A stretch of DNA of 60,396 nucleotides, the filler included, from Nitrospirae bacterium CG2_30_53_67 (lineage in GTDB: Bacteria > CG2-30-53-67): NCBI GenBank assembly GCA_001873285.1. It is 5 parts of 5 records of this genome, joined end to end, with 100 filler letters (N's around TTAATTAATTAA, not from the genome) between each part and the next. Parts side by side here need not be neighbours in the genome. Positions count along the whole stretch, not along the records: positions 1 to 10,187 come from MNYV01000153.1; 4 more parts are not named here. The stretch is one strand, 5' to 3'. Every line of letters begins with the position of its first letter. Within the stretch, counting starts at the first letter, position 1. This document shows, one piece after another, positions 2,105 to 50,873 of this stretch. Below the pieces are notes generated by a model. It worked only from the letters and a program-made list of their open reading frames with translations, did no database searches and was not told where the DNA came from. The translations under genes and the position numbers were made by a program.

Positions 2105-2620
2105 ATGAAGCTTGAGACCTTCTTATCACAAAAAAAGTCCGCCATCCTTGAAAAATGGCTTAACCTGCTGCTTGATTCATATCCTTCTGAAAGTTCAGCG
2201 TTATTCAAGAAAAACAAAGATCCATTTTCCAATCCCATGGGGCACACGTTCTCTCAAGAGATGGCGTCCATCTATGACGCACTCTTGAAAGGGACTGATT
2301 TTAGTCAGGATCCGTCTTCCGCCGAGATGTTGATCAAGATCCGGGCGGTTCAGGATTTTTCAGCATCTGAGGCCGTCTCCTTTGTCTTCTCACTCAAAAA
2401 GGTGATCCGGGAGGAACTGGGAGAGATGATCGGCGAGGATGGGGTGCAGGCGGAGTTGCAGGCCTTGGACTCCCGCATAGACGATCTTGCCCTGGTCTGT
2501 TTCGACCACTATATGAAATCCAGGGAGATGATCTATGAACTCAAGGCAAATGAAATAAAGGAAAGGGCATACACGCTCCTGAAAAGAGCGAACATGATGT
2601 GTGAGACCACCGGCTCGTAA
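2105..2620 (+). CDS. dsrT: DsrT (RsbRD N-terminal domain protein)
   Basis: KDPFSNPMGH and IKIRAVQDFSASEAVSFVFSLK motifs; directly upstream of dsrM. Confidence 0.9.
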   Translation: MKLETFLSQKKSAILEKWLNLLLDSYPSESSALFKKNKDPFSNPMGHTFSQEMASIYDALLKGTDFSQDPSSAEMLIKIRAVQDFSASEAVSFVFSLKKVIREELGEMIGEDGVQAELQALDSRIDDLALVCFDHYMKSREMIYELKANEIKERAYTLLKRANMMCETTGS

Positions 2621-2672
2621 AGAGCCCGGTCCATTCCAATCATTTGTTTAACATAAAGCGAGGTAAAAATTC

Positions 2673-3668
2673 ATGGGAGTTCTATCCGCCCTCATCTCAG
2701 TGATGGTACTCGTTTTATTGGCCTACGTGGGAGTGAACCGGGGAGGCTTGAATTACCTCTTCGGGGTGACCATCCCTTATGCGGCCGTTCTCATATTCTT
2801 TCTCGGGTTCATCTACCGCATGGTCCAGTGGGCGCGCTCCCCGGTTCCTTTCCGGATCCCAACCACGTGCGGCCAGCAGAAAACCCTCCCCTGGATCAAG
2901 CAAGACAAACTCGAAAGCCCGTCCGACACCATCAGCGTGCTCGCAAGGATGTTCCTTGAGGTCTTTTTCTTCCGTTCCCTTTTCAGAAACACTCGGGCTG
3001 AACTAAGAGAAGGTAAAAGGCTTGTCTATGGCTCTTCCAAATGGCTCTGGATGGCCGGGATGGCCTTTCATTGGTGTTTCCTCATCATTTTCATCAGGCA
3101 CTTGAGATTCTTCACCATGCCGATCCCCGCTCCCCTGCACATGATCGAGGGGATGGACGGCCTCCTTCAGATCGGCGTGCCGAGGCTCTATATGACCGAC
3201 CTCATCTTTCTGGCGGCGGTCGCCTTCCTTTTCTTAAGAAGGGTGGTCATCCCGCAGGTGCGTTACATTTCCCTTCCCGCGGACTACTTCCCCCTCTTCC
3301 TGATTCTGGCTATCGGAACGAGCGGGGTCCTGATGAGATACTTCACCAAGGTGGATATTGCGGCCGTCAAGGATCTCACCGTGGGTCTTGCAACCCTGCA
3401 TCCCCATATCCCGGGGGTGCAGATCGGAAGCATCTTCTACATTCATCTCTTTCTTGTGAGCGCGCTCTTCATCTATTTTCCGTTCAGTAAACTCATGCAT
3501 CTGGGGGGCGTTTTCTTGAGTCCCACGAGAAATCTGGCGAACAACAACCGCATGGTCAGGCACGTCAACCCCTGGAATTATCCGGTCAAGGTCCATACCT
3601 ACGAAGAGTATGAAGATGAATTCAGGGCAAAGATGATTAAAGCCCACATTCCCGTAGAGAAGGAATAA
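2673..3668 (+). CDS. dsrM: DsrM, NarI-like cytochrome b subunit
   Basis: Multi-TM; PVPFRIPTTCGQQK, FHW, RHLR, YFPFSKLMH and SPTRN motifs. Confidence 0.95.
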   Translation: MGVLSALISVMVLVLLAYVGVNRGGLNYLFGVTIPYAAVLIFFLGFIYRMVQWARSPVPFRIPTTCGQQKTLPWIKQDKLESPSDTISVLARMFLEVFFFRSLFRNTRAELREGKRLVYGSSKWLWMAGMAFHWCFLIIFIRHLRFFTMPIPAPLHMIEGMDGLLQIGVPRLYMTDLIFLAAVAFLFLRRVVIPQVRYISLPADYFPLFLILAIGTSGVLMRYFTKVDIAAVKDLTVGLATLHPHIPGVQIGSIFYIHLFLVSALFIYFPFSKLMHLGGVFLSPTRNLANNNRMVRHVNPWNYPVKVHTYEEYEDEFRAKMIKAHIPVEKE

Positions 3669-3671
3669 GCG

Positions 3672-5291
3672 ATGGCAGATAAACTTCCGACACCGGCAGA
3701 AATGAAGATAGACCACACGCCTCCAAAGACCGGGTGGATGGACACGCCCTTTGAATTCAGAAAGGGGACTTGGTGTTACAGCGCGAAGCCCAAGAGTATT
3801 GAGTATCTCGGGTTCCCCAATCCCCGGGAATGGTCCCCGCCGGATGAGGACTGGAAACTTCCGGAGAACTGGGAGGAGATCATCCACAAAGGGTTCAAGG
3901 AACGGCTCGGCAAGTTCCGTTCCTTCAAACTCTTCATGGATGTCTGTGTCCGGTGCGGCGCCTGCGCCGACAAGTGCCATTTTTTCCTTGGAAGCGGTGA
4001 TCCCAAGAATATGCCGGTCCTCAGGGCCGAACTGCTCCGGTCGGTGTACCGCAAAGATTTCACCGCGGCCGGAAAGCTGCTCGGGAAAGCGGCCGGGGCG
4101 AGAAAGCTCACCGTGCAGGTGCTGAAAGAGTGGTTCTACTATTTCTACCAGTGCTCAGAGTGCCGCCGCTGTTCGGTCTTCTGCCCCTACGGCATTGATA
4201 CGGCCGAGATTACCATGATGGCAAGGGAACTCATGCATCTCGTGGGTGTGAACATCAACTGGATCCTCGATCCTGCGGCCAGCTGTTTCAGGACGGGGAA
4301 CCATCTCGGTCTGGAGCCTCACTCCTTCAAAGACAGCATCGAATCCCTGCTGGACGACGTGGAGGAGATTACAGGCATCCGGGTAGCCCCGTCCTTCAAC
4401 CGCAAGGGGGCCGAGATCCTCTTCATCACCCCTTCCGCGGACGTCTTCGCCGATCCGGGAATCTATACCTTTATGGGATATCTCCTCCTCTTCCATCATA
4501 TCGGGCTCGACTACACCATCAGCACCTACGCCTCCGAAGGGGGGAACTTCGGCCTGTTCACCTCAAACGAGATGATGAAACGGCTCAACGCCAAGATGTA
4601 CGCGGAAGCCAAGCGGCTGGGTGTGAAGTGGATCCTGGGCGGGGAGTGCGGTCATATGTGGCGGGTCGTCCATCAGTACATGGATACCATGAACGGGCCC
4701 GCGGATTTTCTGGAGGAGCCGGTCTCCCCGATCACCGGGACGAAATTCGAGAATGCGAAATCCACCAAGATGGTGCACATCACCGAGTTCACCGCGGATC
4801 TGATCAAAAACGGCAAACTTAAACTCGATCCGAGCCGCAACGACCACCGGAAGGTGACGTTCCACGATTCCTGCAATCCTGCAAGGGCCATGGGTATCTT
4901 TGAAGAGCCCCGCTACGTCCTGAAGAGCGTGTGCAATCATTTCCATGAGATGCCGGAGAATACCATCCGGGAGCAGACCTTCTGCTGCGGGGCCGGTTCC
5001 GGGCTGAATACCGAGGAGTTCATGGAGATGAGGCTCCGGGGCGGGCTCCCCAGGGCGAATGCCGTGAAGTACGTGGCGGAAAAACACGGCGTGAACCTGC
5101 TTACCTGTATCTGTGCGATCGACCGGGCCGTGCTTCCTCCCCTGATGAGATACTGGGTTCCCGGAGTCGAGGTCAGCGGCGTGCACGAACTGGTGGGGAA
5201 TGCCCTGATCATGGATGGCGAAAAGAAGAGGACGACCGGTTTGCGTGAAGAGCCTCTTGAAGGCGTAGAGGAGGACGAAGCCGATGTATGA
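3672..5291 (+). CDS. dsrK: DsrK, HdrD-like Fe-S subunit
   Basis: CVRCGACADKC, CSECRRCSVFC, GECGH, HDSCN and CCG domain (FCCGAG...CICAID). Confidence 0.96.
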   Translation: MADKLPTPAEMKIDHTPPKTGWMDTPFEFRKGTWCYSAKPKSIEYLGFPNPREWSPPDEDWKLPENWEEIIHKGFKERLGKFRSFKLFMDVCVRCGACADKCHFFLGSGDPKNMPVLRAELLRSVYRKDFTAAGKLLGKAAGARKLTVQVLKEWFYYFYQCSECRRCSVFCPYGIDTAEITMMARELMHLVGVNINWILDPAASCFRTGNHLGLEPHSFKDSIESLLDDVEEITGIRVAPSFNRKGAEILFITPSADVFADPGIYTFMGYLLLFHHIGLDYTISTYASEGGNFGLFTSNEMMKRLNAKMYAEAKRLGVKWILGGECGHMWRVVHQYMDTMNGPADFLEEPVSPITGTKFENAKSTKMVHITEFTADLIKNGKLKLDPSRNDHRKVTFHDSCNPARAMGIFEEPRYVLKSVCNHFHEMPENTIREQTFCCGAGSGLNTEEFMEMRLRGGLPRANAVKYVAEKHGVNLLTCICAIDRAVLPPLMRYWVPGVEVSGVHELVGNALIMDGEKKRTTGLREEPLEGVEEDEADV

Positions 5292-5700
5292 TGCCGGGAA
5301 AATTATCGCCGGGTTGCTGATCTTTATCGGTGTGATGACGTTTCCTCTCTGGTACAACATGGGGAAGGCCTCGCCGGCGCCGGAGCCGGAACTCTCGCAA
5401 AAGGCCAAGCAGGAAAAGGAGTGCGTGGAACCCAAGTCATTCATGAAGACCAAGCATATGCAGTTGCTGAACCAATGGCGTGATTCGGCCGTGCGGGAAG
5501 ACATGCGGGTCTATGTAGGATCCAACGGGAAGTCTCACGATATCAGCCTCCAGAACACCTGTCTTAACTGTCATTCCAACAAAGACAAATTCTGCGACAA
5601 GTGCCACGATTTTGTGGGGGTTACACAACTCTACTGCTGGGATTGCCATCTTGAGCCGAAGGAGAAGGAGTTATGGGCTGCAAAAGACGTGAATTTTTAA
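5284..5700 (+). CDS. dsrJ: DsrJ triheme cytochrome c
   Basis: N-terminal TM; three CxxCH motifs (CLNCH, CDKCH, CWDCH); HMQLLNQWRD. Confidence 0.95.
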   Translation: MYDAGKIIAGLLIFIGVMTFPLWYNMGKASPAPEPELSQKAKQEKECVEPKSFMKTKHMQLLNQWRDSAVREDMRVYVGSNGKSHDISLQNTCLNCHSNKDKFCDKCHDFVGVTQLYCWDCHLEPKEKELWAAKDVNF

Positions 5701-6464
5701 AGATCGCCGGACTCTCTACCCTGGCGGGCCTTGCGGGCAAATCGGCCTATGAACTGCTTGCTCCGGGTCAGCTTGAGGCCTCAGAGTTCATGTCGGGCGG
5801 GCAGGCCCTGAAGGCCGAACGCTGGGCCATGGTGATTAATATGAAAAAGTGTTCCGAACAGGAAGAGTGCCGGGACTGCGTTGACGTCTGCCGGCATGTC
5901 CACAACATCCCGGATTTCAAGAACCCCAAAGATGAGATCAAGTGGATCTGGAAGGCCCCGTTCCAGCATGCCTTTCCCGAGCAGGAGAGTGAGTTTGTCG
6001 AGGAAAAACTCAAGGAACTCCCTTTCATCGTTCTCTGCAACCACTGTAAGAATCCGCCGTGCGTCCGGGTCTGTCCCACACAGGCGACCTTCAAGAGGAA
6101 AAAGGACGGGGTGGTCATGATGGATTACCACCGCTGTATCGGGTGCCGCTTCTGCATGGCGGCCTGCCCCTATGGTTCAAGAAGCTTCAACTGGAGAGAT
6201 CCCCGGCCTTTTGTCAACAAGGATGAAGGAAATCCGGAATACCCCACGAGGACCAAGGGCGTTGTGGAGAAATGCACCTTCTGCGACGAAAGGCTTGCCG
6301 TAGGCAAGATCCCGGCCTGTGTAGAGGCCTGTAAGGAGAAGGCGCTGGTCTTTGGTGATCTGGAAGATCCGAATTCAGAGGTCCGGGAACTTCTCAGGGC
6401 CAACTACAGCATCCGGCGAAAACCGGAGCTGGGCACGGAACCTTCCGTTTTCTATATTGTATGA
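5673..6464 (+). CDS. dsrO: DsrO periplasmic Fe-S protein
   Basis: Tat signal KRREFLK; CNHCKNPPCVRVC, CIGCRFCMAAC, KCTFC. Confidence 0.95.
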   Translation: MGCKRREFLKIAGLSTLAGLAGKSAYELLAPGQLEASEFMSGGQALKAERWAMVINMKKCSEQEECRDCVDVCRHVHNIPDFKNPKDEIKWIWKAPFQHAFPEQESEFVEEKLKELPFIVLCNHCKNPPCVRVCPTQATFKRKKDGVVMMDYHRCIGCRFCMAACPYGSRSFNWRDPRPFVNKDEGNPEYPTRTKGVVEKCTFCDERLAVGKIPACVEACKEKALVFGDLEDPNSEVRELLRANYSIRRKPELGTEPSVFYIV

Positions 6465-6471
6465 GGTGACT

Positions 6472-7629
6472 ATGCTGGAAAAGGCATTGACCGGAAGTCG
6501 AAGATACTGGGCATGGATATTTTTCCTGCTTGCGATCATCGGGGTAGGGTTTATTTTCTACCTGCGGCAGCTAAGTTACGGTTTGGGGATCACCGGTATG
6601 AGCCGGGACGTGACTTGGGGGTTCTACATCGCCCAGTTTACCTATCTGGTGGGGGTGGCGGCCTCGGCGGTGATGCTGGTCATTCCTTATTATCTCCATA
6701 ATTACAAGAAATTCGGGAGGATCACGGTTCTCGGAGAGTTCCTGGCCGTCTCCGCCGTGATCATGTGCATCCTGTTCATCTTCGTCGACCTCGGCCAGCC
6801 CTTCCGGGTCATGAATGTGGTCCTGCATCCCACCCCAAACTCGGTCATGTTCTGGGACATGATCGTCCTCTTGGGGTATTTCATGCTGAATATCGTGATC
6901 GCATGGGCTACCCTGGGCGCTGAGCGCAAGTCCGCGCCTCCGCCTTCATGGATCAAACCGCTGATCTACCTTTCGATTCCATGGGCGGTCAGTATCCATA
7001 CGGTGACCGCGTTCCTGTATGCCGGTCTTCCCGGAAGACATATGTGGCTCTCCGCCATCATGGCGGCCCGGTTCCTGGCCTCGGCATTTGCATCAGGCCC
7101 CGCTCTTCTGATTATCCTTTGCCTGATCGTGAGAAGTCAGACCCGTTTCGACCCGGGCAAGGAGGCCATCCAGACCCTGGCCAAGATCGTGACTTACGCC
7201 ATGATCACCAATGTATTTTTTCTGCTCCTTGAATTCTTCACCGCCTTTTACAGCGGGATACCGGGACATATGAATTCCCTCAAATATCTCTTTTTCGGGC
7301 TGGAAGGGCATGGGGCGCTTGTTCCCTTCATGTGGACATTTGTGGTTTTGGCCGTTATAGGAATCGGTATGCTGGTCCCGCCGCCTCTGCGCTCAAACGA
7401 GAATCTTCTGGCCGTTGCCGCGATATTGATCATCGTTTCGACATGGATCGACAAAGGGTTGGGGCTGGTGGTGGGCGGTTTCATCCCTAACCCGTTTGAA
7501 GAAGTGGTGGAATATGCGCCGACCCTGCCCGAACTCTCGATTGCCCTCGGTGTCTGGGCCATCGGGTTTCTGATATTGACCATTCTGTTTAAAGTGGCGA
7601 CGGCCGTTAAGGAAGAGGCCGCTCAGTGA
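6472..7629 (+). CDS. dsrP: DsrP, NrfD-family membrane subunit
   Basis: Start MLEKAL after GAGGTG RBS; TGMSRDVTWGFYIAQF; about 10 TM segments. Confidence 0.95.
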   Translation: MLEKALTGSRRYWAWIFFLLAIIGVGFIFYLRQLSYGLGITGMSRDVTWGFYIAQFTYLVGVAASAVMLVIPYYLHNYKKFGRITVLGEFLAVSAVIMCILFIFVDLGQPFRVMNVVLHPTPNSVMFWDMIVLLGYFMLNIVIAWATLGAERKSAPPPSWIKPLIYLSIPWAVSIHTVTAFLYAGLPGRHMWLSAIMAARFLASAFASGPALLIILCLIVRSQTRFDPGKEAIQTLAKIVTYAMITNVFFLLLEFFTAFYSGIPGHMNSLKYLFFGLEGHGALVPFMWTFVVLAVIGIGMLVPPPLRSNENLLAVAAILIIVSTWIDKGLGLVVGGFIPNPFEEVVEYAPTLPELSIALGVWAIGFLILTILFKVATAVKEEAAQ

Positions 7630-7727
7630 AGGGGTGATCCGGGCCGCGAAGGCCGGATGGTAAAATATTAAGGTGTTTTCGGGAGGTTTGTAACCTTAAA
7701 TTAATAACAACATTGGAGGAAGACGTA

Positions 7728-8063
7728 ATGAGCAGCATTGAAGTCGGCGGCAAGAAAATTGAATTGGATGAGGATGGCTTTCTTAAAAATATGGATGACT
7801 GGAGCAAGGACGTGGCCTTGGCGCTTGCAAAGACCGAAAGCGTCGATATGACGGAAGCGCATTGGGAGGTGGTGAACTTTCTCAGGGATTATTACCAGGA
7901 ATACAAGATCGCCCCGATGATCCGGATCCTGACCAAGGCCATCGGGAAGGCCCTCGGCAAGGAGAAGGGGAATACCAAGTATCTCTATGAACTTTATCCC
8001 GCCGGGCCGGCCAAACAGGCTTGTAAGATTTCCGGTTTGCCCAAGCCCACGGGCTGCGTATAA
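7728..8063 (+). CDS. dsrC: DsrC sulfur carrier with both C-terminal cysteines
   Basis: C-terminus ACKISGLPKPTGCV (Cys-X10-Cys); GGAGGA RBS. Confidence 0.95.
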   Translation: MSSIEVGGKKIELDEDGFLKNMDDWSKDVALALAKTESVDMTEAHWEVVNFLRDYYQEYKIAPMIRILTKAIGKALGKEKGNTKYLYELYPAGPAKQACKISGLPKPTGCV

Positions 8064-8248
8064 GCGGTCCATTTAAAGGGATGGACAGGGGAGCTTCCCC
8101 TTGAAGCGCTGACTCCGGTTGTAGAATCCCTGCGCTTATGGGGAGAAAGGTCTGGAAGAAAAAAACGATGCGGGTCGTACATCCGGACTGCCTTTCAAGA
8201 GGCGGATAACCCGTGCATGAAGATTCACATTTATGTGATGGAGGTACA

Positions 8249-8605
8249 ATGAAATTCGGAATACTGGTTCAGGAAGGCCCCTATAATCACGAGGCGTCGG
8301 ACAGCGCCTACAATTTCATCCAGGCATCACTGGCCAGGGGACATGAAATCACCGGCGTTTTTTTCTACAACGACGGGGTCATCAATGCAACGAAGCTGAT
8401 GGATATCCCTGCCGATGACCGTCACATCAGCAAAAGATGGTCGGAGTTAGGGTCCAAGGGTGTCCAATTGATCGTTTGTGTCGCGGCGGCCAAGCGGCGC
8501 GGCATCAATCAGAATGTTCTCATCGAAAACGCGAGGATCGACGGGCTCGGGCAGTTGAGCGAACTCTGTATCGAGTCCGACCGGCTGGTGACCTTCGGCG
8601 ATTAA
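8249..8605 (+). CDS. dsrE: DsrE sulfurtransferase subunit
   Basis: EGPYNHEASDSAYNF, FFYNDGV and active-site CVAAAKRRG; GGAGG RBS. Confidence 0.92.
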   Translation: MKFGILVQEGPYNHEASDSAYNFIQASLARGHEITGVFFYNDGVINATKLMDIPADDRHISKRWSELGSKGVQLIVCVAAAKRRGINQNVLIENARIDGLGQLSELCIESDRLVTFGD

Positions 8606-8626
8606 ACGAAAGGAGTTGATGAGCCA

Positions 8627-8998
8627 ATGGAAGAGAGTAAAACGAGAAAGATTATGTTTGTGAACCGGAAGGCGCCTCACGGTTCCATTTACGCCTACGA
8701 GGGGTTGGAAGTGATCCTCATCTTCGGGGCGTACGATCAGGAAATCAGCGCCGTCTTCCTGGACGATGCCGTTCTCTCCCTGAAAAAAGGGCAGGATACC
8801 AGTGAGCTTGGGACCAAGGGGTTTGCCGCGACGTTCAAGGTAATGGAATCCTATGGGGTGGAGAACCGATATGTGGACAGGGAGTCGTTGGAACAGAGGG
8901 GCCTCACCAAGGACGATCTGCTGGTTGACGTCGAGGTCATGGACGGGGCGGCGCTCCGCAAGGTTATGGGAGAGCAGGACGTGCTTTTGCCTTTTTAA
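8627..8998 (+). CDS. dsrF: DsrF
   Basis: FVNRKAPHGSIYAYEGLEV, FLDDAV, YVDRESLEQRGL. Confidence 0.92.
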   Translation: MEESKTRKIMFVNRKAPHGSIYAYEGLEVILIFGAYDQEISAVFLDDAVLSLKKGQDTSELGTKGFAATFKVMESYGVENRYVDRESLEQRGLTKDDLLVDVEVMDGAALRKVMGEQDVLLPF

Positions 8999-9028
8999 TG
9001 GTTCGAGTATTCGCAAGGAGGAGAAACA

Positions 9029-9322
9029 TTGCTTCATATCGTGAACAAATCACCTTTTAAATTCCGGAACCTGGACAGTTGTATCCGGATCGCCAAGGAT
9101 GATGATCCCATCATGCTGATCGAGGACGGTGTCTACGCCGCGCTGACCGGGACCGCCCTTGAGAAAATGATGAAGGGAGCCTTGAAGACCCATCCCGTGT
9201 TCGCCATCCAGGCGGATCTCAAGGCTCGGGGTGTGGACAGGATCATCGAGGGGATACAGGTTTGCGACTATTCCTGTTTCGTAACGCTCGTCGAAAAGCA
9301 CGTACCCTATTCCTGGCTGTAA
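9029..9322 (+). CDS. dsrH: DsrH
   Basis: LHIVNKSPF, LDSC, LIEDGVYAA, DLKARG, C-terminal SWL; TTG start with AGGAGG RBS. Confidence 0.92.
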   Translation: MLHIVNKSPFKFRNLDSCIRIAKDDDPIMLIEDGVYAALTGTALEKMMKGALKTHPVFAIQADLKARGVDRIIEGIQVCDYSCFVTLVEKHVPYSWL

Positions 9323-9328
9323 TGAAAA

Positions 9329-9994
9329 TTGATGGGTGATCCCAAAGAGGCTGTAAAGGAATTCTTAAGAGATAAAAAATACCAGGAGATCCTGAACCTG
9401 GCGGGTGAAAATCGAAAAATGGTCAGGCTCCTTCGGTCCATCCTATACGATGAGGAGCCGATCATCAGGTGGCGGGCGGTGACCCTGTTAGGCAGGCTCG
9501 CCGTGGAAAAACCCGGCTGGATCAAAAACGAGGTCAGCCGGCTGCTCTGGACGCTGAACGACGAATCAGGCTCGATAGGAAGGGCCGCTCCGGAGACTAT
9601 CGGGGAGATCGCAAGGAACAACATCCGCCTTGCAGAAGATGCCGTCAAGGTGGTCATACAATATCTCAAGGATCCGGAGACCTGCCGGTCTCCGAACCGG
9701 AATATAGACATCCTGACCGGGGTGCTCTGGGCCATAGGGAGAGTGGGGAACAGGCGCCCATCTCTGGTCACGAAAGTCATCCCGGTGATTGAATCTTTTC
9801 TCGTAGATCCTGAGCCCTCGGTCAGAGGCCATGCCGCCTGGTGCCTGGGTCAGATCGGCGTGAAAAGCGCCAAGGAGGGGCTTGAGCGGCTGATCCATGA
9901 TGAAGCAAGGTTCCTGCTGTATGAAGATGACGAATTGCAGGAGCAAGCGGTCGGCATGATTTCCGGAAGGGCGCTGCGCCTGATTGGGAATTAA
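9329..9994 (+). CDS. HEAT-repeat protein (DVU0298-like family)
   Basis: RLLWTLNDESGSIG..APETIGEI and DPEPSVRGHAAWCLG HEAT/PBS-lyase-like repeats. Confidence 0.75.
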   Translation: MMGDPKEAVKEFLRDKKYQEILNLAGENRKMVRLLRSILYDEEPIIRWRAVTLLGRLAVEKPGWIKNEVSRLLWTLNDESGSIGRAAPETIGEIARNNIRLAEDAVKVVIQYLKDPETCRSPNRNIDILTGVLWAIGRVGNRRPSLVTKVIPVIESFLVDPEPSVRGHAAWCLGQIGVKSAKEGLERLIHDEARFLLYEDDELQEQAVGMISGRALRLIGN

Positions 9995-10187
9995 GGTTCA
10001 TCTCCAAAAGAGTGGGTGAAAACATCAGGGGTCAAGGGGTCAAGGATTCCAGGGGTCAAGTGAAGTGCTTTTCAAGACTTGAGGGTCCGAGGGGCCAAGG
10101 ATTCAAGGGGTCGAGTGAAGTGCTAAAAACATCAGGGTTCAAGGGTTACTGTGTTTTTCTCTGGAGATTTTGCTTGCATTTAAGTAT
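9994..10187. repeat. MITE-like element with GGGGTCAA arrays (copy B, left part, cut by contig end)
   Basis: AGGTTCATCTCCAAAAGAGTGGGTGAAAACATC followed by GGGGTCAA/GGATTCCA arrays and TGTTTTTCTCTGGAGATTTTGCTTGC core; starts in the TAA stop of the upstream gene. Confidence 0.75.
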
Positions 10188-10287
10188 NNNNNNNNNNNNN
10201 NNNNNNNNNNNNNNNNNNNNNNNNNNNNNNNTTAATTAATTAANNNNNNNNNNNNNNNNNNNNNNNNNNNNNNNNNNNNNNNNNNNN
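10188..10287. other. Artificial contig spacer
   Basis: 100 bp of N with central TTAATTAATTAA (stops in all frames). Confidence 0.97.
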
Positions 10288-20265: not shown

Positions 20266-20365
20266 NNNNNNNNNNNNNNNNNNNNNNNNNNNNNNNNNNN
20301 NNNNNNNNNTTAATTAATTAANNNNNNNNNNNNNNNNNNNNNNNNNNNNNNNNNNNNNNNNNNNN
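20266..20365. other. Artificial contig spacer
   Basis: N-run with TTAATTAATTAA. Confidence 0.97.
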
Positions 20366-30251: not shown

Positions 30252-30351
30252 NNNNNNNNNNNNNNNNNNNNNNNNNNNNNNNNNNNNNNNNNNNNTTAAT
30301 TAATTAANNNNNNNNNNNNNNNNNNNNNNNNNNNNNNNNNNNNNNNNNNNN
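30252..30351. other. Artificial contig spacer
   Basis: N-run with TTAATTAATTAA. Confidence 0.97.
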
Positions 30352-50773: not shown

Positions 50774-50873
50774 NNNNNNNNNNNNNNNNNNNNNNNNNNN
50801 NNNNNNNNNNNNNNNNNTTAATTAATTAANNNNNNNNNNNNNNNNNNNNNNNNNNNNNNNNNNNNNNNNNNNN
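50774..50873. other. Artificial contig spacer
   Basis: N-run with TTAATTAATTAA. Confidence 0.97.

Follow-up and report, generated by a model that had tools for sequence, protein, structure and literature searches.

A dsr gene set was reportedly credited to Tan et al. 2019 when Löffler et al. wrote about Nitrospirae bacterium CG2_30_53_67, the organism whose dsrT-M-K-J-O-P-C-E-F-H cluster we analyse here in a 60,396-nt stretch of its DNA (the window). The papers cited below are represented by excerpts of their text. Löffler et al. 2020 (PMC7596348) describe for this genome a dsrTMKJOPCEFH cluster together with a reductive-type dsrABDL-2 and an oxidative-type rdsrABL-2, propose that the two sets are direction-specific and that the organism switches between them, and point out that a reducer-like gene set does not rule out oxidation. 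Diao et al. 2023 (PMC10591310) report the same for the single deep-groundwater metagenome-assembled genome (MAG) of phylum CG2-30-53-67. Klier et al. 2024 (PMC11406059) place CG2-30-53-67 among 'transitionary phyla' with dsrD, dsrEFH, dsrL and dsrT, and regard such genomes as remnants of a transition, and Plum-Jensen et al. 2026 (PMC13293266) find reductive-type dsrAB in only 2.4% of the genomes that carry type I dsrEFH, and note that mixed clusters exist. Löffler et al. 2020 was the only paper returned when the literature was searched in full text for 'CG2_30_53_67'. The mosaic cluster and the hypothesis that the pathway runs in both directions are thus already known for this lineage, since that paper reports dsrTMKJOPCEFH, dsrABDL-2 and rdsrABL-2.

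Compared with the published description, the locus analysed here has the same dsrTMKJOPCEFH order, dsrAB-D-L-2, second rdsrAB-dsrL-2 and groundwater habitat. It differs in that dsrEFH is joined, via a gene for a HEAT-repeat protein, to the reductive-type dsrAB-D-L2, as seen in a 299-nt overlap between contigs and in the synteny of eight of eight family relatives. This physical link between type I dsrEFH and a reductive-type dsrAB-D-L2 is an addition, being absent from the excerpted text of both Löffler et al. and Diao et al. We put at roughly 0.6 the probability that the organism uses its Dsr pathway both ways, by switching or by sulfur disproportionation, and would be neither a pure reducer nor a pure oxidiser.

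The cluster spans positions 2105-9322 of the window and consists of ten co-oriented plus-strand genes on a single contig of 10,187 nt (C150; Table 1). A preliminary description of the window had called them contiguous and on the same strand, which the open reading frames (ORFs) and family scores bear out, and the DsrE motif that it quoted occurs in the translation. A chance origin is excluded by the match E-values, which run from 1e-20 to 1e-228 over ten adjacent co-oriented genes. With the longest ORFs the gene spacings range from -113 nt to +149 nt, and dsrP, dsrC and dsrE likely start later (ATG 6469, ATG 7728 and ATG 8249); the longest dsrP ORF begins at TTG 6352, but its family match starts at residue 41, which points to the later start. 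No NCBIfam model matched dsrT. Its label comes from its position directly 5' of dsrM and from its resemblance (30-32% identity) to what occupies the same place, in loci of the Chlorobi type, in six of 80 public loci fetched with a DsrE profile; it is 43-78% identical to the dsrT of relatives. CBS and HPP genes lie 5' of dsrT in the window, as they do in two relatives (G004 and G005), and the 390-nt gap 5' of dsrT contains sigma-70-like sites with an 11/12 match at 1782-1811 and 1909-1937. Promoter-like sites on the contig number 7 against 6.9 in shuffles and terminator-like sites 12 against 10.9, an excess in neither case, and operon borders are therefore not defined by them.

The first half of the cluster is of reducer type. 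All five DsrMKJOP subunits exceed NCBIfam equivalog cut-offs; DsrK carries Pfam CCG and Fer4 domains (PF02754, 24.2 bits, cut-off 20.6), DsrJ is of the triheme type with three CxxCH motifs (CLNCH, CDKCH and CWDCH) in its translation, and DsrO has a twin-arginine start (RREFLK). A search by sequence found no solved structure matching DsrK. DsrK is 76-78% identical to its counterparts in Moorella/Neomoorella, Thermanaeromonas toyohensis, Desulforhabdus amnigena and Dissulfurirhabdus thermomarina. The comparison loci include DsrK in 58 cases and lack it in 22; identity is 70-76% in 12 of the 58 and 43-47% in the other 46, which are proteobacterial-type oxidisers. The closer 12 consist of ten Chlorobi-type loci (eight Chlorobi and two 'Pseudomonadota' MAGs of the same gene order), one Nitrospinae locus and one further Chlorobiaceae fragment. 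A DsrK tree of 38 rows (quick search, midpoint root) divides into two clades, each with 100% support in the Shimodaira-Hasegawa-like approximate likelihood ratio test (SH-aLRT). One, of 22 rows, unites the window's family with four cultured reducers or disproportionators, two MAG rows, Chlorobi and the Nitrospinae locus; the other, of 16 rows, holds the proteobacterial oxidisers, the sister family within the phylum (f2) and one Nitrospinota locus. The NCBIfam models, which were trained on reducers, give 173.9 for the 244-aa DsrM of Thiobacillus and 67.3 for its DsrJ, below the cut-offs of 300 and 100, while Prosthecochloris DsrM (466.2 bits) is above its cut-off, like the DsrM of the window, and Prosthecochloris DsrJ is above as well. 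The DsrK tree and identities, together with DsrM and DsrJ scores over reducer-trained cut-offs, agree with the earlier view that this DsrMKJOP is reducer-style.

The second half, dsrC and dsrEFH, is of oxidiser type. In phmmer comparisons DsrE scores 125.9 bits to Allochromatium vinosum DsrE (2hy5_A) against 78.6 to Escherichia coli YheN/TusD; for DsrH the corresponding scores are 75.7 bits (A. vinosum DsrH) and 40.2 (E. coli YheL/TusB). The DsrC of the window matches its A. vinosum counterpart at 166.7 bits and the DsrC proteins of Archaeoglobus, Desulfovibrio and Desulfomicrobium at 91.7-120.9. Cysteines aligned with A. vinosum DsrE Cys78 and DsrH Cys20 are present (alignments to 2hy5 chains A and C), and the C-terminus of DsrC, CKISGLPKPTGCV, keeps both the penultimate cysteine and a second one 10 residues upstream; the roles of these DsrE, DsrH and DsrC cysteines are described by Stockdreher et al. 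2012 (PMC3397948). The dsrC gene, 149 nt 5' of dsrE when longest ORFs are used, is the single DsrC/TusE-family gene found in the genome, and its two cysteines mark it as the DsrC type. On these scores and residues DsrEFH is classed as a type I sulfurtransferase of the A. vinosum type, and the A. vinosum model predicts that it would transfer sulfane sulfur to DsrC.

The NCBIfam TusD, TusC and TusB models do not separate DsrEFH from Tus proteins, and all three are over their cut-offs here. An identity as TusBCD was rejected on the two-cysteine DsrC partner, the embedding of the genes in a dsr cluster and the closer match to A. vinosum. DsrE is thus oxidiser-like and not an enteric TusD, as the preliminary description had read it, and DsrEFH is not Tus-like. 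Nor do all genes fall into one known oxidiser or Chlorobi clade; the DsrK tree, the DsrM and DsrJ scores and the DsrC, DsrE and DsrH scores together sustain its proposal of a mosaic in which a reducer-type dsrT-MKJOP is combined with an oxidiser-type dsrC and dsrEFH.

The locus continues beyond the window. The contig's final 299 nt (9889..10187) recur without a mismatch at the start of contig C174, a suffix/prefix match that opens with ~100 nt of unique sequence from the 3' part of the HEAT gene and otherwise consists of a dispersed repeat. C174 has the order dsrA-dsrB-83-aa ORF-dsrL, and because of this overlap the dsr locus proceeds from the HEAT gene to dsrAB, a dsrD-like gene and dsrL-2. 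It had been noted that dsrAB, dsrD and dsrL are not in the window; this is true, and dsrAB, the dsrD-like gene and dsrL lie directly downstream on C174. The HEAT gene, of the DVU0298 family, stands between dsrH and dsrA in eight of eight family relatives, with 51-72% identity, and also in a Nitrospinota locus (L021, 37%); a full-text literature search for DVU0298 returned one paper, on an unrelated matter. The dispersed repeat, made of GGGGTCAAGG-like units, occurs in the window at 722-830 and 9995-10187. A BLAST search with the 193-nt copy located it at 160 merged places, spread over 101 of the 183 contigs. Of these places 49 are within 400 nt of a contig end, and the assembly is evidently interrupted by the repeat, the gap from the HEAT gene to dsrA being one such case.

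Two sulfite reductases are encoded. On C174, dsrA1 scores 576 bits to TIGR02064, dsrB1 526 and dsrL1 626 (PRK12771); a second set, dsrA2-dsrB2-dsrL2 on contig C88, scores 488, 472 and 618 bits. The sets are 52% (DsrA), 53% (DsrB) and 51% (DsrL) identical to each other, and both DsrA genes are over the TIGR02064 cut-off. Against the DsrA proteins of reducers in the PDB, A1 scores 507-544 bits and A2 350-385. The nearest named relatives of A1, at 69-74% identity, are in Anaerolineae, GN15, Zixibacteria, Omnitrophica, Tectomicrobia, Ignavibacteriaceae and Polyangia MAGs. In a DsrB-rooted DsrA tree of 59 rows, none of them from a cultured sulfate reducer, A1 falls in an 18-row clade (100% support) together with DsrA from seven MAG lineages that are regarded as reducers. 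A2 joins a Nitrospinae locus of the order EFH-MKJOP-C-A-B (L007; 100%), and a third clade (90%) is made up of the canonical oxidisers, with Chlorobi and family f2 on the one hand and Proteobacteria on the other. A DsrA-profile search of 50%-identity representatives yielded mostly fragments and very few clusters; eight full-length rows from it entered the tree, where they took long branches or joined known clades. By these scores and this grouping A1B1 is assigned to the reductive bacterial-type DsrAB. Both DsrL proteins contain the YRR motif (LYRRT), which in the NAD(P)-binding domain is the mark of DsrL-2 (Löffler et al. 2020, PMC7596348). A tblastn search of the genome (183 contigs, 2.37 Mb, 95% complete, 0.96% contamination) found one each of DsrC, DsrE, DsrM and DsrK, and at that completeness these single copies mean that both DsrAB sets must use the same DsrC, DsrMKJOP and DsrEFH.

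The 83-aa ORF between dsrB1 and dsrL1 is kept in seven of eight family relatives (68-90% identity) and in one Nitrospinota locus (44%). It matched nothing in the PDB by sequence. Its AlphaFold2 model is a winged helix with three helices and a beta-hairpin (pLDDT, the predicted local distance difference test, 83.6), for which Foldseek gave no match at E <=0.001; structure comparison returned generic winged-helix domains at Z ~10, and DsrD was not among the 50 matches listed. In the ESM Atlas the ORF stands at 0.97-0.98 to clusters auto-named DsrD (Acidobacteriota, Ignavibacteriota) and at 0.95 to a cluster with PF08679 on 25% of its members. A search of the genome with the Pfam DsrD model PF08679 gave no match, and the control genomes were also without one, so that this search has no positive control. 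We read the ORF as a divergent DsrD candidate, in agreement with the published 'dsrABDL-2'.

The surroundings of both sets were also inspected. Downstream of dsrL1 on C174 (L005, 5063-8508) are a ferritin/rubrerythrin-like gene, an NfnAB-like pair (PRK06222, 404 bits; gltA-type, 613 bits) and a second ferritin-like gene; a GltD-like gene about 3.5 kb after dsrL1, with a 40-41% DsrL cross-hit, is found in six relatives too. Such an NfnAB-like pair may connect NADPH and ferredoxin to DsrL-2. On C88 (L006), a truncated group II intron reverse transcriptase/maturase lies at 174-908 on the minus strand (201 bits, cut-off 300), at the contig end 3' of dsrL2, and this intron fragment is probably why the assembly separates the second dsrAB-dsrL set from the contig with CBS, HPP and dsrT. 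Five kb from dsrA2 on the same contig (9951-15298), formate dehydrogenase-N alpha is split into ORFs of 186 aa and 823 aa, likely by an in-frame TGA (selenocysteine), with genes for HybA/HmcB-like and HmcC-like subunits beside it.

The organism had been described as deltaproteobacteria-like, but its genome is placed in a small, distinct phylum that comprises 14 species genomes in two families. DsrE is present in all 14. The order T-M-K-J-O-P-C-E-F-H-HEAT-A-B-L is found on single contigs in G001, G002, G005 and G007, and T-M-K-C-E-F-H-HEAT-A-B-L in G004 and G006, these six relatives coming from four genera and having the locus on contigs of 24-51 kb; shorter contigs of G003 and G008 start inside the cluster and follow the same order, and the E-F-H-HEAT-A-B adjacency holds in eight of eight family relatives. 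The order M-K-J-O-P-C-E-F-H was met in none of the 80 public loci. Both dsrAB copies are present in eight of nine family genomes, G002 (89% complete) showing one, and in G004 and G005 the two copies share a contig and a strand and flank the accessory genes.

Within the phylum the modules of the locus seem to have had different histories. The near-complete genomes G004 and G006 (loci L102 and L103) have no orthologous dsrJOP, their best DsrP-like match (43-46% identity) being at the level of a paralogue that G005 also carries. The DsrK of G006 groups with that of G004, apart from G007, a member of the same genus as G006; this placement suggests that genomes of the family have exchanged the dsrTMK module. 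Family f2 (L108, L109 and L111) has proteobacterial-type DsrMK (34% and 44-45% identity) and a DsrA that is sister to Chlorobi, and one of its members (G010) carries two such Chlorobi-sister DsrA genes on one contig. The DsrEFH proteins of both families, in contrast, form one clade (95% support), with Chlorobi DsrEFH separate. DsrEFH looks inherited in the phylum, and other modules exchanged, as judged from the monophyly of DsrEFH and the differing f2 DsrMK and DsrA.

A search of the rest of the bin, which the preliminary description had proposed, supplied further pathway genes: besides the two dsrAB sets, the two dsrL genes and the dsrD-like ORF, contig C109 carries aprA (763 bits), qmoC (439) and sat (404), all over cut-offs, in a layout that by ORF sizes is aprB-aprA-...-qmoA-qmoB-qmoC-sat. 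Fusion to APS kinase points to an assimilatory role for a second Sat. Neither SoxB nor NarG gave anything over cut-offs in this 95%-complete genome, and a PhsA-like molybdoenzyme scored 646, just below its cut-off of 694. A heme-copper oxidase subunit is present, and six TusA genes are over cut-off.

We propose a mechanism modelled on A. vinosum and on sulfate reducers. The window cluster would be the accessory half of one long dsr locus, in which DsrT has a regulatory or other role, DsrMKJOP is the membrane complex, DsrC the substrate carrier and DsrEFH the sulfurtransferase, with the single DsrC pool as the hub. In the oxidative direction, TusA-type carriers would load the DsrE cysteine, DsrEFH would hand the sulfane sulfur to the penultimate cysteine of DsrC, a DsrAB would oxidise the DsrC-bound sulfur to sulfite while DsrL-2 sends the electrons to NAD(P)+, and AprBA, QmoABC and Sat would convert sulfite to sulfate. 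In the reductive direction, DsrAB, aided by the DsrD-like protein and fed with NAD(P)H by DsrL-2, would reduce sulfite onto DsrC, and DsrK of DsrMKJOP would reduce the DsrC trisulfide with electrons from quinol.

A more specific version is decidedly unlikely. It holds that DsrEFH is co-transcribed with the reductive-type DsrAB-DsrD-DsrL-2 and that the shared pool of DsrC, DsrMKJOP and DsrEFH makes up a disproportionation circuit, in which one DsrAB would oxidise DsrC-bound sulfane sulfur, the other would reduce the resulting sulfite, and the two DsrL-2 would balance NAD(P)H. If true, such a circuit would be an undemonstrated genetic solution for sulfur disproportionation and an exception to the rule for dual-DsrAB genomes, where DsrEFH accompanies the oxidative enzyme.

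Several points weigh against use of the pathway in both directions. We infer physiology and the direction of flux from genes alone. The immediate neighbour of dsrEFH is the reductive-type dsrAB set. In the DsrA tree the clades of A1, A2 and the canonical oxidisers form an open trichotomy, and the designation of A2 as 'oxidative-type' is taken from the literature (PMC7596348, PMC10591310). The 83-aa ORF was unmatched by PF08679 at E up to 1, as were nine of nine orthologues at E up to 10. In a genome that is 95% complete, a further DsrC or DsrMK may have escaped assembly. Four aquifer metatranscriptome libraries gave 38 short contigs aligned to C150, 34 of them at >=99% identity and at a depth of 2-6, which fall on dsrT/M, K, O and P, on the spacer between dsrC and dsrE, on E/F and H/HEAT, and on the neighbouring genes CBS and HPP, with several bins of the cluster free of such contigs in the four libraries; they are a weak hint of transcription of the cluster in situ, as they give neither strand nor level and DNA carry-over is possible.

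An obligate sulfur oxidiser is an unlikely alternative to bidirectional use. Both DsrAB would then be oxidative, as the reductive-type enzyme is in Desulfurivibrio and the cable bacteria, with DsrEFH, DsrL-2, Apr, Qmo and Sat as a reverse route to sulfate and O2 as acceptor. The monophyletic type I DsrEFH, its cysteines intact and its genes retained throughout the phylum, would fit such a life, as would the two DsrL genes, the lack of a Pfam-recognisable DsrD, the heme-copper oxidase and the position of dsrEFH directly 5' of A1, and Löffler et al. 2020 (PMC7596348) hold a reducer-like set to be compatible with oxidation. However, a dsrD-like winged-helix gene is kept between dsrB1 and dsrL1, A1 groups with lineages read as reducers, SoxB is not over its cut-off, and one direction hardly explains why two DsrAB-DsrL sets only 52% identical persist in eight of nine family genomes.

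It is very unlikely that the organism is an ordinary sulfate or sulfite reducer, in which DsrEFH and the second dsrAB-dsrL would be leftovers of a 'transitionary' lineage, or DsrEFH a TusBCD-like relay for tRNA 2-thiolation. DsrE and DsrH are far nearer to A. vinosum than to E. coli Tus proteins and both functional cysteines are conserved, even though the TusD, TusC and TusB models are also over their cut-offs; dsrEFH has dsrC on one side and dsrA on the other, and all 14 phylum genomes retain it; and the sole DsrC/TusE-family gene found is of the two-cysteine DsrC type. The reducer-type DsrTMKJOP, the reductive-type A1 with its dsrD-like gene and the full sat-aprBA-qmoABC would be expected of a reducer, and the view of Klier et al. 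2024 (PMC11406059) that such genomes are remnants of a transition speaks for this reading. An artefact of assembly or binning, a chimeric contig uniting reducer and oxidiser genes of different organisms, is hardly credible in spite of the 183-contig MAG, the short contig (10.2 kb) and the dispersed repeat at its end, given the same order on the single contigs of six relatives in four genera, DsrE in every genome of the phylum, an even composition along the contig and 19 aquifer/groundwater DNA runs that contain 98-99% of the stretch's sampled words.

The window is made up of five contigs joined by N spacers, across which neighbourhood is meaningless. Its other four contigs showed no dsr-related genes among 45 ORFs scanned. 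A DDE transposase (DUF772 + DDE_Tnp_1_6) lies at 26188-27816 on C152, and C153 is mostly devoted to polysaccharide biosynthesis (glycosyltransferases, pyruvyl transferases, asparagine synthase, epimerase).

Table 1. Features of the window and of the adjoining contig C174. Positions are those of the window unless a contig is named; scores are in bits.
Feature	Position	Strand	Product or remark	Family match (cut-off)
Contig C150	1-10187		carries whole dsr cluster	
Contig C151	10288-20265			
Contig C152	20366-30251			
Contig C153	30352-50773			
Contig C158	50874-60396			
N spacers	10188-10287, 20266-20365, 30252-30351, 50774-50873			
dsrT	2105..2620	+	171 aa	PF14361 RsbRD_N 72.8 (24.3)
dsrM	2673..3668	+	331 aa, long reducer/Chlorobi-type membrane cytochrome b	NF038037 550.9 (300)
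dsrK	3672..5291	+	539 aa, Fe-S/CCG catalytic subunit	NF045796 756.4 (400)
dsrJ	5284..5700	+	138 aa	NF038038 181.2 (100)
dsrO	5673..6464	+	263 aa, periplasmic Fe-S protein	NF045797 314.7 (200)
dsrP	6469..7629	+	NrfD-type membrane subunit	NF045798 499.1 (350)
dsrC	7728..8063	+		PF04358 158.6; DsrC/TusE NCBIfam 165.2 (53.5)
dsrE	8249..8605	+	type I	TusD/DsrE TIGR03012 121.3 (89.25); PF02635
dsrF	8627..8998	+		TusC/DsrF TIGR03010 124.6 (94.15); PF02635 89.3
dsrH	9029..9322	+		TusB/DsrH TIGR03011 89.7 (49.2); PF04077
HEAT-repeat gene	9329..9994	+	DVU0298 family	NF045662 147.8 (75)
83-aa dsrD-like ORF	C174 2908-3159		between dsrB1 and dsrL1	

Genomes with mixed reductive and oxidative dsr genes bear on the evolution of sulfur oxidation from sulfite reduction, and on whether gene content predicts the direction of sulfur metabolism. 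The cluster described here is a clean example of such a mosaic. What we add is the family-wide join of dsrEFH to reductive-type dsrAB-D-L2, the single DsrC, DsrMK and DsrEFH that serve two sulfite reductases, a DsrEFH that is universal and monophyletic against DsrMK and DsrAB that differ between the two families, and two relatives without dsrJOP. These additions sharpen the published hypothesis and name testable junctions, and leave its overall picture unchanged.

In Chlorobi, as here, type I DsrEFH and DsrL stand together with a DsrT and a DsrMKJOP that resemble those of reducers, and their DsrK and DsrM are 70-75% and 53-59% identical to those of the window. Their gene order in the public loci is C-A-B-L-E-F-H-(T)-M-K-J-O-P, different as the preliminary description had said, and they have a single oxidative dsrAB and a DsrEFH clade of their own; membership of the locus in the Chlorobi group was rejected on gene order and DsrEFH clade. 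The dsrABEFHCMKLJOP clusters of the A. vinosum type share the DsrEFH/DsrC relay cysteines, with DsrE 58-73% and DsrC 59-73% identical in proteobacterial loci, but have a short DsrM (244 aa, 30-37%), a DsrK of 43-47% identity, no dsrT, only oxidative dsrAB and another order. TusBCD/TusE of E. coli has a homologous fold and the same DsrE/TusD active cysteine, whereas here the partner is a two-cysteine DsrC and the genes are embedded in a dsr locus. Type II DsrEFH, known from cable bacteria and sulfate reducers, also co-occurs with reductive-type dsrAB (PMC13293266), but is less than 30% identical to type I and lies beside tusA/yeeE; here it is type I and inside the dsr locus. The dual-DsrAB genomes of Gaiellales SURF_19, Myxococcota SURF_8 and Desulfocapsaceae likewise have reductive and oxidative dsrAB with DsrL-2 (PMC7596348, PMC10591310). 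In those genomes, as far as the excerpts describe them, DsrEFH is beside the oxidative set or absent, whereas here it stands beside the reductive-type set.

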